Made by a program: the position numbers and the translations under genes. DNA of 64,000 bases from a virus (lineage: Duplodnaviria > Caudoviricetes), in IMG/VR virus record IMGVR_UViG_3300032280_000753, positions 64,001 through 128,000 of that record, one strand, 5' to 3'. The notes beneath the pieces were generated by a model, which searched no databases, was not told where the DNA came from, and saw only the letters and a list, made by a program, of their open reading frames with translations. This document shows, in pieces, positions 7,669 to 24,689 of this stretch; position 1 is the first letter of the stretch, and every line of letters begins with the position of its first letter.

Positions 7669-8190
7669 TTATACTCTGGAACTCTTCTGATACCAATCAT
7701 ACAAAGCAATGCCAGAAGAAACTGTAACGTTATGATCGTTATTAAGACCAAGCATGGGAATGGTTACGATGCTATGGGATGCCGCAAGGATTTGATCCGG
7801 AACGCCCGTCTTCTCACTACCGAAGAATAGAACCGGATTTTCTGGATACCTAAAAGAACGAATATCATAACAATCCAAGTTGTCTCGACGTTCAAAACTA
7901 ACCAGATTGCGTCCCTTCATTCCATGAAGAAAACTATCAAGAGTAGACCAACGCTTAAGGTGGCGCTTCTCATACTTTAGCGTTGATAGAGCACCCTTCT
8001 CATAAAACCACTCAACCTCTACAAGATGAATATCTCGCACAAGAAAGTTATGAGCGGTTCTAATCATTCCACCAACATTAAACTCATTCTTTGAACCAAA
8101 GATTGCAATGCTTACAGGTTGACGAACTTCATCCAAGGCATCACAAATTTCATCACGAGTAAAACCAGAAAGATCCGGTGCGTTTGACAT
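7669..8190 (-). CDS. SpoU/TrmH-family (SPOUT) RNA methyltransferase
   Basis: NVGGMIRTA, LFFGSEKTGV and TIPMLG..DHNV motifs; ATG at 8190 preferred over the track start at 8199. Confidence 0.9.
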   Translation of the reverse strand: MSNAPDLSGFTRDEICDALDEVRQPVSIAIFGSKNEFNVGGMIRTAHNFLVRDIHLVEVEWFYEKGALSTLKYEKRHLKRWSTLDSFLHGMKGRNLVSFERRDNLDCYDIRSFRYPENPVLFFGSEKTGVPDQILAASHSIVTIPMLGLNNDHNVTVSSGIALYDWYQKSSRV

Positions 8191-8195
8191 ATTAA

Positions 8196-8516
8196 TCAAT
8201 CTTCATCGCTGTTGCGACTACGAACCCGCTGCTTACGACGTGGAATGACACCGCCAATTGGAGCACGATCATCACCTTCAAGAGAAGCATAGTATTCACG
8301 ACTACTACTAATACGGAAAGTAATACGTCCCATACCAGTATCATAAGGCGATACTTCAAGCTTAACCCTATCACCAACCTGCAAATCAATCTTATTCTGA
8401 CGCATCTTGCCAGATAGCTTTGCAGTCACAATCTGATCGGTCCCCTCAACCTTAACACGGAAAATATCACGAGAATGATCAAGAACAAAACCAATCAATT
8501 CCATACGATCTGTCAT
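8196..8516 (-). CDS. infA: translation initiation factor IF-1 with C-terminal extension
   Basis: FRVK...AKLSGKMRQNKI.L.VGDRVKLEVSPYD...GRITFR is the IF1 signature. Confidence 0.92.
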   Translation of the reverse strand: MTDRMELIGFVLDHSRDIFRVKVEGTDQIVTAKLSGKMRQNKIDLQVGDRVKLEVSPYDTGMGRITFRISSSREYYASLEGDDRAPIGGVIPRRKQRVRSRNSDED

Positions 8517-8562
8517 TAGCTATTTACCTTTTCTATCTTTCTTTTTTGTTTAGTATCCGAAA

Positions 8563-8635
8563 CGTTCCCGGCAGGAGTCGAACCTGCGACCGACGAGGTA
8601 GAAGCTCGTAGCTCTATCCTCTGAGCTACAGGAAC
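8563..8635 (-). tRNA. tRNA-Arg(TCT), no encoded CCA
   Basis: GTTCCTG/CGGGAAC acceptor stem, ACGAG-CT-TCT-AC-CTCGT anticodon arm, GGTTCGACTCC T arm. Confidence 0.95.
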
Positions 8636-8646
8636 CTGATACACCT

Positions 8647-8675
8647 AATATAGCACGCTCTATGTCAGGTGTAAA
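8647..8675 (-). promoter_or_regulatory. sigma70-type promoter for tRNA-Arg/infA/TrmH
   Basis: TTTACA-17 nt-TATATT with extended TG. Confidence 0.75.
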
Positions 8676-8683
8676 CTATATAT

Positions 8684-9064
8684 TCACCAATTATAAAAAA
8701 AGGAATTATCACTATGTTGAGGGCGCAAGGTATTAGTTCCAGAACTACGCATCAAAATATACATCCATGCAGGTTCATTTTCATCACGTAGCTGCACAAG
8801 CTCACGCTTATAAAAACTACCATTGGCTTCCAATCGGTCAAGCCTCTCCAAAGTAGAATTGTCCACTTCGTATAGCTCACCATTAATCGCCGCAGCTTCT
8901 CCATTCTCCGAATTCTTAATGACGCCTGGAAACGCACCAAACGAAATCATATGATAAATTTCTTCGCTTGTAAGACGTGAACCAATATAGTTCGCTTCCA
9001 ATAGCAATGAATGATTACCACGACCCTGCTTCAAGCTTCCATAAACAAAAACACGATGCTTCAT
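8684..9064 (-). CDS. gamma-glutamylcyclotransferase (GGCT/AIG2-like)
   Basis: VFVYGSLK, GELYEV..LDRLE and YKR motifs; ATG at 9064 has a GAGG SD. Confidence 0.92.
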   Translation of the reverse strand: MKHRVFVYGSLKQGRGNHSLLLEANYIGSRLTSEEIYHMISFGAFPGVIKNSENGEAAAINGELYEVDNSTLERLDRLEANGSFYKRELVQLRDENEPAWMYILMRSSGTNTLRPQHSDNSFFYNW

Positions 9065-9072
9065 ATTAAACC

Positions 9073-22612: not shown

Positions 22613-22660
22613 ATAGTTTTTAAAATATATTTCGTCTTAGCTTAAGTATAATAAACACAT

Positions 22661-23314
22661 ATGAAAATAATAAAATTAATCAATCAACATATTCCTATAT
22701 GGTCAATGCTTTGCGGAGATCATGCTTTAAAGGCAGTAGTTGAGAACATTAATCCTAAACTTTTATCAGCCCCGAATTTTCTAAATCCTTTGGAAAACAA
22801 ATTGCGGTTAGATGTTTTTATAGACAGACGTGAATGGATATGGAATTCCATGAAAGATAATGTTGCATTCGCATTGGTTGAATTTGACATAGAAGAACTA
22901 ATGACATTTAAAACTTGTTTTACAAACGTTTCTTTTAAAGAGTTTTCTGAAGAATATCAAAAAGCTTGTAAAAAAGGAAAAGGCTTTATTATTAAACGCC
23001 CAAGGCACAGCACCGATTTAGAAAAATCTAAAGAAAATGTTGAACACGTTTGCAAAGAACTAACTACAAAAATAGAAAACGATTTTTTAAAGATACAAAA
23101 AATAAAAGCAAAAGATGTTTTAAATCCAATGCTTAATAATGAAAACAATATATATTTGGCAAGTAATCGTGGATTGGTGATGAAATCGAAAAGCTCGAAT
23201 AACGTTACAATTATGGATGCTACACATAGATTGACTGCATATGCCGTTTCGAAAATGAATAAAAAAAGCTGCCTCCCTGATAAGCTATATGCTTTCTATT
23301 GGGAGGAAGCTTAA
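22661..23314 (+). CDS. hypothetical protein, possible ParB/Srx-like fold
   Basis: IMDATHRL resembles the ParB/Srx DGxHR motif. Confidence 0.55.
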   Translation: MKIIKLINQHIPIWSMLCGDHALKAVVENINPKLLSAPNFLNPLENKLRLDVFIDRREWIWNSMKDNVAFALVEFDIEELMTFKTCFTNVSFKEFSEEYQKACKKGKGFIIKRPRHSTDLEKSKENVEHVCKELTTKIENDFLKIQKIKAKDVLNPMLNNENNIYLASNRGLVMKSKSSNNVTIMDATHRLTAYAVSKMNKKSCLPDKLYAFYWEEA

Positions 23315-23316
23315 TT

Positions 23317-23691
23317 TTATCCACGACGTTTTTCCATATAAGGGAAGATGCTGTAAGTAGTGCCATGTTTCTTGAAAACAAACGTCCCTAATACATTTCC
23401 ATATATTATAGATTTATTCTTCAATAAAGCCGCAAGTCCACTTTGGTTCATCCAATATCTTGCGCCGGTTTCAGTATCCTCCCAAAGTATCTTACCACCG
23501 TAATACATATTGATAAATTTTAAATTAGCATCAAAACGAATATTCTCTCGCCAATCATATTTTGCTTCCCAATTTGGTTTACGCATTTCATAATGAGTAA
23601 TCTGGTGAGGAACGCTTCCAATTGGAAGATTATTGGCTTTATCAGCTTCTTTTATAAAAGGAACCCTGTAATCTACTTTTTTTCTTGGCAT
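23317..23691 (-). CDS. hypothetical protein
   Basis: 124-aa ATG ORF. Confidence 0.7.
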   Translation of the reverse strand: MPRKKVDYRVPFIKEADKANNLPIGSVPHQITHYEMRKPNWEAKYDWRENIRFDANLKFINMYYGGKILWEDTETGARYWMNQSGLAALLKNKSIIYGNVLGTFVFKKHGTTYSIFPYMEKRRG

Positions 23692-23746
23692 AAAACCGCT
23701 AATACCATATCTGTTTTATATGCTTGGAATAAGTAGATAGCATCCG

Positions 23747-24214
23747 TCATTCTAAAATACGTATTTTTTGCAGGGATATGCCCCGACGCTTCCACATATA
23801 TCTACGCCAACGTCGCATCAATCTACGTAGCCACCAAAAAGGACGGCGCTGATATCCATCTTTCTTTTCATGGCAAGGAACACAAAGAGGCTGAACGTTA
23901 TCTGGTGTATTTGTGCCTCCTGCGTTAATAGACAAAATATGATCGAGCGTTAACTTGTTTCGCCCTTTAATGTTGCAATTGGCGCAACTCCAATTACATT
24001 TTTGCAATACTGTTAACCATTCACGAGTAGTAATCCGTCCGGTAGGATATCTCTTGTTCCTCTTAGAACGATTATTGGAACGCAGACGCAAACGTTCTGA
24101 ATTCCAACACTCTCGACATATATGTTCTGAAAATTGGGAAGCAGCCTCTTGCTTTCGCTTATCGCAAAAACACAACTGACACGTATGTTCCTTTTTTCTA
24201 AACCAATGTAGCAT
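23747..24214 (-). CDS. HNH endonuclease
   Basis: CANC...LTLDHI...GGTN..DNVQPLCVPCH. Confidence 0.88.
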   Translation of the reverse strand: MLHWFRKKEHTCQLCFCDKRKQEAASQFSEHICRECWNSERLRLRSNNRSKRNKRYPTGRITTREWLTVLQKCNWSCANCNIKGRNKLTLDHILSINAGGTNTPDNVQPLCVPCHEKKDGYQRRPFWWLRRLMRRWRRYMWKRRGISLQKIRILE

Positions 24215-24654
24215 CAGTAAACAATATCCGTGGTATCGCCGTTAGGCTTAATTAGCATCTTACCATACTGTTCCTCATTGATAGTATAATAAGCCTTTCG
24301 GATGCCATAGCTATGCAAAGCGTTTTCGCAAATAGGACACGGGCGAGCCATACCTGGACTACCATCAATCTTCTTACGCCGAGCGACAAAAATTTTACAA
24401 CCTCGGAGGTTAACCTTTCCACGAGCCTTGAGAATTGCATCCTGTTCTGCATGAGTAGAAAGACAAAAATCTCTGCCACGTCCTCGGGCAAGATCCGTAT
24501 AATGCTCTACAAAAGCGTTTGTATTAACCTTGTTAAATCCAACGGAAATTACCGATCCCCCTCGGATAATAATAGCCGCCAAATGATAGTCTGCCGCATT
24601 ATCATAACGATTGTCGGTGGCATACTGCATAGCAAGTCGCAAATATCTGTGCAT
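24214..24654 (-). CDS. zinc-dependent nucleoside/nucleotide deaminase (CDA superfamily)
   Basis: HAE and PCPIC motifs; AAIII....ISVGFN. Confidence 0.9.
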   Translation of the reverse strand: MHRYLRLAMQYATDNRYDNAADYHLAAIIIRGGSVISVGFNKVNTNAFVEHYTDLARGRGRDFCLSTHAEQDAILKARGKVNLRGCKIFVARRKKIDGSPGMARPCPICENALHSYGIRKAYYTINEEQYGKMLIKPNGDTTDIVY

Positions 24655-24660
24655 AAAGGT

Positions 24661-24689
24661 ATAATAACATATTATGAAGTTATTTTAAA
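24661..24689 (-). promoter_or_regulatory. sigma70-type promoter, leaderless geometry (deaminase)
   Basis: TTTAAA-17 nt-TATTAT-6 nt-ATG, extended TG. Confidence 0.7.

Follow-up and report, generated by a model that had tools for sequence, protein, structure and literature searches.

The stretch of DNA analysed here, referred to as the window, is 64,000 nucleotides (nt) long and corresponds to positions 64,001 to 128,000 of the IMG/VR virus record IMGVR_UViG_3300032280_000753. The part under study, positions 7669-24689, carries genes for a translation initiation factor IF1, a SPOUT-family RNA methyltransferase, a CCA-adding-type nucleotidyltransferase, a lysyl-tRNA synthetase (LysRS), and seven tRNAs including an initiator-like tRNA-Met, together with five promoters placed immediately upstream of start codons. 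All of these features lie on the minus strand, as do nearly all genes of the 6.5-64 kb interval. An earlier reading of the sequence alone (the sequence-only reading) had proposed that these parts act together to bias ribosomes toward phage messages that lack Shine-Dalgarno (SD) sequences and to resist tRNA-targeting defences.

No near match to the window was found among deposited phage genomes. Its large terminase (TerL) is of the T4 type, and the best deposited TerL relatives (Microcystis phage Mel-JY01, the Flavobacterium 'immuto' phages, and a 484-kb uncultured phage) are 36-40% identical. The close relatives are contigs from IMG/VR and other metagenomes, in which gene order is conserved and TerL and IF1 are 72-97% and 57-100% identical, respectively. 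These relatives are fragments (14-52% complete by CheckV), so the absence of IF1 from any one of them is uninformative; those of 51-103 kb are scored as 14-25% complete, which indicates a genome of roughly 0.4 Mb. It is likely that 7669-24689 is the early accessory region of a T4-like, uncultured jumbo phage with a genome of that size, transcribed by a host sigma70-type RNA polymerase and kept across a family of freshwater phage contigs.

Hints as to the host disagree. A scan of species genomes with LysRS, limited to shared 8-mers, recovered only Acidimicrobiia-type enzymes (37-42% identity), the closest bacterial IF1 is gamma-proteobacterial, and the transfer-messenger RNA (tmRNA) tag of relatives, ANDNSYALAA, looks proteobacterial. 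The INPHARED record CAKLQH020000005.1 (L059, 'Acinetobacter phage MD-2021a') has infA beside leuB, leuD, truA and ansA, looks like a bacterial chromosome, and was excluded.

Promoters immediately upstream of start codons

Five genes begin at an ATG placed just downstream of a sigma70-like promoter, and promoters of a related architecture precede four of the tRNA genes. These features are as follows (aa, amino acids; ORF, open reading frame).

24214-24689, minus strand: dCMP-deaminase-like gene (24214-24654, ATG at 24654), immediately following TerL and preceded by a leaderless-type promoter (24661-24689)
21507-22012, minus strand: gene for a 156-aa protein without family (ATG at 21977), preceded by a leaderless-type promoter (21984-22012); a 146-aa gene and LysRS lie downstream
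18733-18850, minus strand: tRNA-Glu(TTC) with promoter TTTACA/17 nt/TATATT, followed by a terminator at 18669-18698
18381-18568, minus strand: gene for a 50-aa basic protein (ATG at 18533), preceded by a leaderless-type promoter (18540-18568); heads a run with 147-aa and 275-aa ORFs
16912-17028, minus strand: tRNA-Ala(TGC) with promoter TTTACA/17 nt/TATATT
12348-12461, minus strand: tRNA-Pro(TGG) with a promoter-like site (TTTAAA, 17 nt, GATAAT)
11082-12133, minus strand: PurA-like gene (338 aa, ATG at 12098), preceded by a leaderless-type promoter (12105-12133); followed by a cupin gene, tRNA-Met and tRNA-Gly
9312-10426, minus strand: Amidoligase_2 gene (ATG at 10391), preceded by a leaderless-type promoter (10398-10426); heads a run with an 80-aa ORF and a GGACT gene
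8647-8675, minus strand: strong sigma70-type promoter TTTACA/17 nt/TATATT, its -10 ending 11 nt before tRNA-Arg

Each of the five ATGs (10391, 12098, 18533, 21977 and 24654) is the first codon of a conserved ORF, and the first cistrons are those of the amidoligase, the PurA-like protein, the 50-aa basic protein (whose ATG is in frame within a 57-aa ORF of the ORF list), the 156-aa protein, and the dCMP-deaminase-like enzyme. The sites lie on the coding strand only and within 10.4-24.7 kb. The pattern TTKAAA-N17-TATNNT-N6-ATG has five matches in the window against 0.05 expected by chance, and a looser form has five against 0.23, with the qualification that the pattern was written after the sites were seen and was counted on those same sites; weight is thus placed on conservation in the relatives.

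This conservation is strong, and the five promoters of leaderless geometry listed by the sequence-only reading all stand. Counting distinct sequences, a -35/-10 pair is retained 5-8 nt upstream of the ATG, mostly at 6 nt, in 38 of 39 orthologous upstream regions; as a control, ten other gene families of the same loci keep such a pair in one of 64. Across relatives whose proteins are as little as 45-60% identical, both hexamers, their 17-nt separation, the ATG and an often-present TG ahead of the -10 persist, whereas the bases of the spacer and of the 6-nt linker vary; all five start codons are ATG in every relative. None of the five sites has an SD sequence, and nearby genes carry AAGGAG, GGAGG or AGGAGG. 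Such sites are confined to the syntenic region in a 103-kb relative, and a further 34 kb of the same phage holds one additional site, 12 kb before the window.

The usual distance between a -10 element and the start of transcription is 7 nt, so with a -10 ending 6 nt before the ATG the A of the AUG would be +1. We infer that the transcripts start at this A and are leaderless messages; in sequence, the five sites have the hallmarks of that class, an AUG start, no SD, and a -10 immediately upstream. Alternatively, the motifs could be, for example, AT-rich translation enhancers on longer transcripts, or transcription could start elsewhere. The proposed starts are indeed read from promoter geometry, and generic sigma70-like matches show no excess in this AT-rich region (54, versus 58.8 in shuffled sequences). 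We nonetheless give this alternative little credence, given that the hexamers, their spacing, the TG and the 6-7 nt distance persist while the intervening bases change, that the same architecture drives tRNA genes, and that no site falls on the non-coding strand. The tRNA promoters include three exact TTTACA/17 nt/TATATT sites, each 11-17 nt before its gene (tRNA-Arg, -Ala and -Glu), and a fourth, weaker promoter-like site before tRNA-Pro. Of all the results of this analysis, the conserved early promoters of leaderless type are both the best founded and the least expected.

IF1, tRNAs and other translation genes

The remaining genes with a translation role, and the tRNAs that lack a closely placed promoter or have one listed above, are these.

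19621-20934, minus strand: class II LysRS, 437 aa, led by an SD (AGGA) and behind a conserved hairpin
16421-16494, minus strand: tRNA-Asn(GTT), no encoded CCA (ARAGORN/Rfam)
13477-15525, minus strand: CCA-adding-type nucleotidyltransferase, 682 aa, lineage-specific
10589-10660, minus strand: initiator-like tRNA-Met(CAT), with A1xA72, A73, G2:C71, C3:G70 and A11:U24
10501-10573, minus strand: tRNA-Gly(TCC), no encoded CCA, T loop ATCGTGC (ARAGORN/Rfam)
8563-8635, minus strand: tRNA-Arg(TCT), no encoded CCA (ARAGORN/Rfam)
8196-8516, minus strand: IF1 homologue, 106 aa, leadered and downstream of tRNA-Arg
7669-8190, minus strand: SPOUT (SpoU/TrmH-like) RNA 2'-O-methyltransferase, its ATG 5 nt after the IF1 stop codon

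Profile and PDB searches agree with the sequence-only reading as to the presence of IF1, a SPOUT methylase, a CCA-type enzyme, LysRS and a deaminase fold; its small basic peptide corresponds to the 50-aa protein. IF1 matches PF01176 (E 3e-12; 46.3 bits, cut-off 30.2) and narrowly passes TIGR00008 (61.6 bits, cut-off 61.15). Residues 3-68 align to the IF1 of Pseudomonas aeruginosa and Escherichia coli (2n78, 1ah9), with about 45-50% identity to gamma-proteobacterial IF1, and the motifs SGKMR, GDxV, PYD and GRI..R are invariant in the phage family. An AlphaFold2 model gives a five-strand OB fold for residues 1-70 (pLDDT, a per-residue confidence score, >90), followed by a 36-aa charged C-terminal tail (pLDDT 41-54) that is predicted to be disordered. 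The phage protein thereby departs from the usual single domain of about 72 aa: all close family members (97-106 aa) have a tail of 30-36 aa, acidic-basic-acidic in character and variable in sequence, and only the most distant match (72 aa, 51% identity) is tailless. The E. coli residues K42, Y44 and R46 are replaced throughout the family by Q, K, and D or N. IF1 lies 46 nt after tRNA-Arg, behind the strong promoter, and has an A-rich leader with at most a weak SD; it is thus not itself leaderless, which counts against a coupling of these parts.

The methylase following IF1 matches PF00588 (E 2.5e-19, 70 bits), and its best PDB matches are TrmH (7edc, E 3e-9) and TrmL (9e-7). It had been called a TrmH-type methylase; it is a member of the SPOUT family closest to TrmH, and falls below the TrmH equivalog level (42 bits against a cut-off of 227 for the NCBIfam model), with the TrmL and RlmB models also matching.

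Seven tRNAs are recognised by ARAGORN and Rfam, with specificities Arg-TCT, Gly-TCC, Met-CAT, Pro-TGG, Asn-GTT, Ala-TGC and Glu-TTC. As proposed earlier, none of the seven has an encoded CCA—nor has any tRNA of the relatives—and one of them is fMet-like. This tRNA-Met shares 82% identity with the E. coli metZWV initiator locus; for the 'tRNA-fMet' of Caulobacter phage CcrSC the figure is 83%. The Rfam alignment gives a non-canonical A1xA72 and the discriminator A73, and alignment to metV shows the shared pairs G2:C71, C3:G70 and A11:U24, such that the initiator features CAU, unpaired 1x72, A73, G2:C71 and C3:G70 (the formylation set), and A11:U24 are all present. The acceptor stem and D arm match initiators, and the alternative that the CAT tRNA is a tRNA-Ile2 was rejected.

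It departs from canonical initiators elsewhere. The anticodon stem has U29:A41, G30:C40 and G31.U39 in place of three consecutive G:C pairs (the 3GC run), retaining the pair, G30:C40, that has been called the most important for IF3 (PMC11775629); in relative L022, pairs 29-31 are G:C, C:G and G:C through compensatory changes. The elbow is likewise altered, with the D loop AGTAGTAA (A18 by alignment) and T loop TGCAAAT (G55) giving A18/G55 rather than G18/U55, while the anticodon loop CUCAUAA is the same as in the E. coli initiator. With A1xA72, the lost 3GC run and A18/G55, 'variant initiator' is a fair description. A second kind of altered elbow is seen in tRNA-Gly (10501-10573) and tRNA-Glu (18733-18810), the T loops of which (ATCGTGC and ATCATAC) have A54...U58 instead of T54...A58.

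The CCA-type enzyme matches PF01743 (126 bits) and PF12627, and has the head and neck of a class II nucleotidyltransferase. It reaches 194 bits with the CCA model and 185 bits with the PcnB model, below the respective cut-offs of 290 and 306; no family match was found for the C-terminal 350 or so amino acids. It is present only in this lineage and was not found in the 103-kb relative G003. In relatives L026 (4324-5583), L027 and L028 the corresponding slot holds a phosphoenolpyruvate (PEP) mutase of the phosphonate pathway, beside a cytidylyltransferase-like gene. LysRS matches PF01336 and PF00152, has the OB domain and class II core, and finds PDB LysRS structures at E 7e-99; it scores just under the family cut-off (441 bits versus 468) because about 50 N-terminal residues of bacterial LysRS are absent.

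The deaminase had been counted with the tRNA and translation set, and it probably does not belong there. It has a cytidine/dCMP-deaminase fold, the one solved structure related to it is that of the S-TIM5 cyanophage dCMP deaminase (E 8e-6), and there is no match to TadA, nor any in NCBIfam; we read it as a dCMP-deaminase-like enzyme of nucleotide metabolism rather than a tRNA enzyme. Both the deaminase and the CCA enzyme are outside the conserved core.

Resistance to tRNA-targeting defences would be a reasonable reading of the odd initiator, and a version of it can be extended to the region: the initiator (no 3GC run, U39, A18/G55) and the tRNAs whose T loops are altered, together with LysRS and the CCA-type enzyme, would mainly replace or repair host tRNAs hit by defence nucleases. 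Phage tRNAs have been proposed to evade anticodon nucleases such as VapC, PrrC and colicins (PMC10264068), and work cited in that article has enteric VapC cleaving initiator tRNA; CCA-adding enzymes have been classed among the RNA repair genes of jumbo phages (PMC7824862). The departures of tRNA-Met from its E. coli counterpart at the anticodon stem and elbow, and the A54/U58-type T loops of tRNA-Gly and tRNA-Glu, accord with this proposal. However, the anticodon loop itself is unchanged, family searches of the stretch detected no RNA ligase, kinase-phosphatase or other repair enzyme, and the window has no tRNA-Lys to pair with LysRS. As the main role of these genes we regard defence as doubtful.

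The tRNAs read AGA, GGA, CCA, GCA and GAA, each a top or joint-top codon of the phage. SD use is low overall (20 of 57 phage genes), with genes tightly packed. Alternatively, the region could be an unlinked mosaic, in which the tRNAs are plain codon supply, IF1, LysRS, the methylase and the CCA enzyme are sporadic auxiliaries of the sort that accumulate in jumbo phages, and promoters abut ATGs as a reflection of a compact genome, with no particular dependence on a phage factor. The match to the commonest codons, an overlap with the T4 tRNA set, the PEP mutase in the CCA slot of relatives, and the HNH endonuclease and lineage-specific insertions that mark the region as plastic are all in keeping with this, and the tRNA promoters too are very near their genes. 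Against it, the run of tRNA-Arg, IF1 and SPOUT methylase is kept, with the initiator-like tRNA, down to 57-65% IF1 identity, and across this range of divergence the spacing stays at exactly 6-7 nt, which argues for selection on start position beyond short spacers. We consider the mosaic a serious possibility, if not the one to be preferred.

Probable transcription units and neighbouring features

The other features of the region include two structured RNAs and a set of metabolic genes.

16546-16900, minus strand: conserved structured RNA 1, between tRNA-Ala and tRNA-Asn
15555-15790, minus strand: conserved structured RNA 2, ending in an intrinsic terminator at 15566-15592
10693-11058, minus strand: cupin gene, after the PurA-like gene
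8684-9064, minus strand: GGACT gene, last of the run amidoligase, 80-aa ORF, GGACT

A transcription layout was derived from gene order, spacing and terminator-like hairpins. The amidoligase promoter would serve the amidoligase, the 80-aa ORF and GGACT, and probably, by read-through, the tRNA-Arg promoter, tRNA-Arg, IF1 and the SPOUT methylase; the PurA-like promoter probably serves the PurA-like gene, cupin, tRNA-Met and tRNA-Gly. The tRNA-Ala unit would comprise tRNA-Ala, structured RNA 1, tRNA-Asn, a 630-nt insert, structured RNA 2 and its terminator, and tRNA-Glu would be a unit of its own with a terminator. Three overlapping genes would follow the 50-aa promoter. The 156-aa promoter would lead to the 156-aa gene, the 146-aa gene (with a GGAGG), a conserved hairpin, LysRS (AGGA) and a terminator, and the deaminase promoter to the deaminase, the HNH endonuclease and a 124-aa gene. 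The leaderless-type promoters, the tRNA promoters, IF1 and the initiator-like tRNA are thus probably common to one sigma70-type early region, with some of them in shared units.

The unassigned structured RNAs of the sequence-only reading are borne out as two conserved RNAs, neither of which matches an Rfam family, and this phage family thereby yields two new conserved structured RNAs. Structured RNA 1 (about 350 nt) has 70 predicted pairs, 25 of which show compensatory changes across six relatives. Structured RNA 2 (about 230 nt) is 88-98% identical in relatives whose proteins are 60-80% identical; a 55-aa ORF over it is not a gene, being broken in L020, where the base pairs are kept through compensatory changes. 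In L022, RNA 2 directly follows tRNA-Asn, whereas in the window the two are separated by a window-specific insert of about 630 nt (15790-16420), with a tRNA 3'-half remnant at its far end and an opposite-strand ORF of 214 aa without family.

Several further observations concern single loci. At 20945-20985 (minus strand), about 20 nt before the LysRS start, a conserved terminator-like hairpin with a T run may act in attenuation or may stabilise the 5' end. At 12140-12334 (minus strand) lies a gene for a 64-aa membrane peptide, weakly similar to Flp/Fap pilin, which starts 13 nt past the 3' end of tRNA-Pro and has no SD; processing of the tRNA could leave it a very short leader. Relatives L001 (13128-13485), L002, L005 and L007 have a tmRNA (tag ANDNSYALAA or ANDSSYALAA), flanked by the 124-aa gene and a conserved stretch of 700 nt. 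No tmRNA was found in the window, where it is missing exactly at the junction 23316/23317. The adjacent 700-nt stretch (22613-23316 of the window) is 74-78% conserved in relatives and has no minus-strand ORF; it has a plus-strand ORF of 217 aa without family and could be an RNA or an antisense gene. Relatives (L026, 12530-15280; L027 and L028, from about 19200) also have a GroEL-like gene with a faint homing-endonuclease (intein-like) match, and portal genes split by inteins.

The stretch also has a metabolic cassette with no obvious link to translation: GGACT, the 80-aa ORF, Amidoligase_2, cupin, PurA-like and cytidylyltransferase-like genes. Amidoligase_2, the 80-aa ORF and GGACT (gamma-glutamyl cyclotransferase-like), at 8684-10391 on the minus strand, are kept in all relatives and probably make or modify a peptide or metabolite. 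The 338-aa PurA-like protein is short, adenylosuccinate-synthetase-like and closest to archaeal-type PurA; an identity as PurZ was not supported (100 bits against a cut-off of 300). No usable family match was obtained for the 50-aa or the 156-aa protein.

Proposed coupling to leaderless translation and comparison with known systems

The reading we prefer, and consider probable, is one of early leaderless operons accompanied by a general translation-support kit. Strong promoters (TTTACA, 17 nt, TATATT) would serve the tRNA genes from 11-17 nt upstream, and a second promoter set (TTKAAA, 17 nt, TAnnnT), 6 and sometimes 7 nt before an ATG, would produce leaderless first cistrons. The tailed IF1, the SPOUT methylase, LysRS and the seven tRNAs, with the initiator-like one among them, would be transcribed in the same early region and partly in shared units. 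The kit would supply tRNAs for favoured A-ending codons, an extra initiator tRNA and extra IF1; more IF1 and initiator tRNA may also aid leaderless and tightly coupled, SD-poor cistrons as a quantitative side benefit. Some help of this kind for leaderless translation may come from IF1 and tRNA-Met, as published in vitro behaviour suggests; a dedicated switch would go beyond the evidence.

Several points weigh against this reading. In addition to the manner in which the promoter pattern was defined, the start sites are deduced from promoter geometry, and the leaderless genes would number only 5-6 in about 98 kb. LysRS may be preceded by a promoter that has only a -10 element, with a 5' hairpin, so not every early message need be leaderless. 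Finally, leaderless messages may not be unusual for the host.

The published literature offers a mechanistic rationale for linking the parts, and their coupling is a plausible and good hypothesis. In vitro, leaderless translation is promoted by IF1 and IF2 and held back by IF3; an excess of fMet-tRNA boosts it strongly but canonical translation only mildly, and scanning by 70S ribosomes is strongly stimulated by IF1 (reviewed in PMC9031893). A mutant IF3 tolerant of 3GC-variant initiators likewise favours leaderless mRNAs, and in mycoplasmas variant initiators occur together with SD-less mRNAs (PMC11775629). E. coli initiators mutated in the 3GC pairs are poor in ordinary initiation (PMC2268962), which cuts both ways for a coupling. 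Huge phages often carry IF1 and other translation genes, and redirection of translation by IF1 has already been proposed (PMC7162821); our literature search found no paper linking huge-phage IF1 to leaderless phage messages.

A stronger claim, close to that of the sequence-only reading, is a dedicated takeover in which the tailed IF1 and variant initiator tRNA, aided by the methylase, the CCA enzyme and LysRS, shift ribosomes to SD-independent or leaderless phage mRNAs and sustain translation under tRNA-targeting defence. The parts do lie in one region and probably share early timing, SD use is sparse, the IF1 family has its charged tail and the replacements at K42, Y44 and R46, and both the in vitro effects of IF1 and surplus initiator tRNA (PMC9031893) and the common IF3 checkpoint on 3GC-variant initiators and leaderless mRNAs, with the mycoplasma combination (PMC11775629), lend it a rationale. 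We nonetheless think it unlikely. The CCA enzyme is not conserved in the family and the deaminase is probably no tRNA enzyme; many phage genes, including structural ones, have an SD and would suffer from a strong bias; and IF1 normally assists IF3, the inhibitor of leaderless initiation.

The expected co-occurrence of infA, tRNA-Met and the promoter geometry was seen only among close syntenic relatives. Every phage with the tailed IF1 family is such a relative, so the co-occurrence is not independent evidence. A scan for the geometry was made in four other jumbo phages—LR756508.1, which has IF1; CcrSC and Yen9-04, which have a related tRNA-Met; and Mel-JY01, a TerL relative—and in these four, matches were no commoner than for a reversed-pattern control, which is weak evidence against a coupling, as their promoters may differ.

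A more specific mechanism can be imagined, in which the tailed IF1, seated in the 30S A site, weakens IF3 proofreading, allowing the phage initiator (no 3GC run, A18/G55), which that proofreading would otherwise reject, to start on leaderless cistrons through 70S ribosomes and on the SD-poor cistrons behind them by 70S scanning, such that early operons gain over SD-led host mRNAs. We regard this as a long shot. Giant phages commonly encode translation factors. The present family offers a testable pairing, of predicted AUG-start messages with an IF1 and an initiator tRNA, the two components marked out in vitro as favourable to such messages, that are both in altered form. If the link is true, this would be the first virus seen to adjust which initiation pathway is used in bacteria; if it is false, the family would still clearly exemplify leaderless early operons in a jumbo phage of T4-like type.

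The phage resembles the huge phages in which IF1, IF3, S1, S21, aminoacyl-tRNA synthetases, a CCA-adding enzyme and tRNAs have been described (Al-Shayeb et al. 2020, PMC7162821) in being a jumbo phage with IF1, an aminoacyl-tRNA synthetase, a CCA-type enzyme and tRNAs. That study drew no connection between IF1 and leaderless messages, whereas here IF1 has a conserved 36-aa charged tail and is accompanied by leaderless-type promoters. The tRNA-Met is like bacterial tRNA-fMet (E. coli metZWV/metY) and the CcrSC copy in its CAU anticodon, unpaired 1x72, A73, G2:C71, C3:G70 and A11:U24. Unlike the E. coli tRNA-fMet, it has A1xA72 for C1xA72, only G30:C40 of the three G:C pairs, A18/G55, and no encoded CCA.

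The T4 tRNA operon is similar in its interleaving of tRNAs with stable RNAs (T4 species 1 and 2) behind a strong early promoter; the -35 sequence GTTTACA resembles the T4 early consensus, and Arg-TCT, Gly-TCC and Pro-TGG are also in the T4 set. No family in common with T4 species 1 and 2 was detected for the RNAs of about 350 and 230 nt, and no use of leaderless early messages is known for T4. Leaderless mRNAs transcribed from a -10 just upstream of the AUG include lambda cI (from pRM) and are common in Actinobacteria and Deinococcus. The sites described here are like those of lambda cI in having a -10 element 6-7 nt before the AUG, no SD, and a strict AUG. In the jumbo phage phiKZ, differential RNA sequencing detected no leaderless transcripts (PMC8244752). 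Unlike the lambda cI type, the predicted promoters described here are a conserved group that would head early operons of a T4-like jumbo phage, each with a clear -35 and often with an extended -10.

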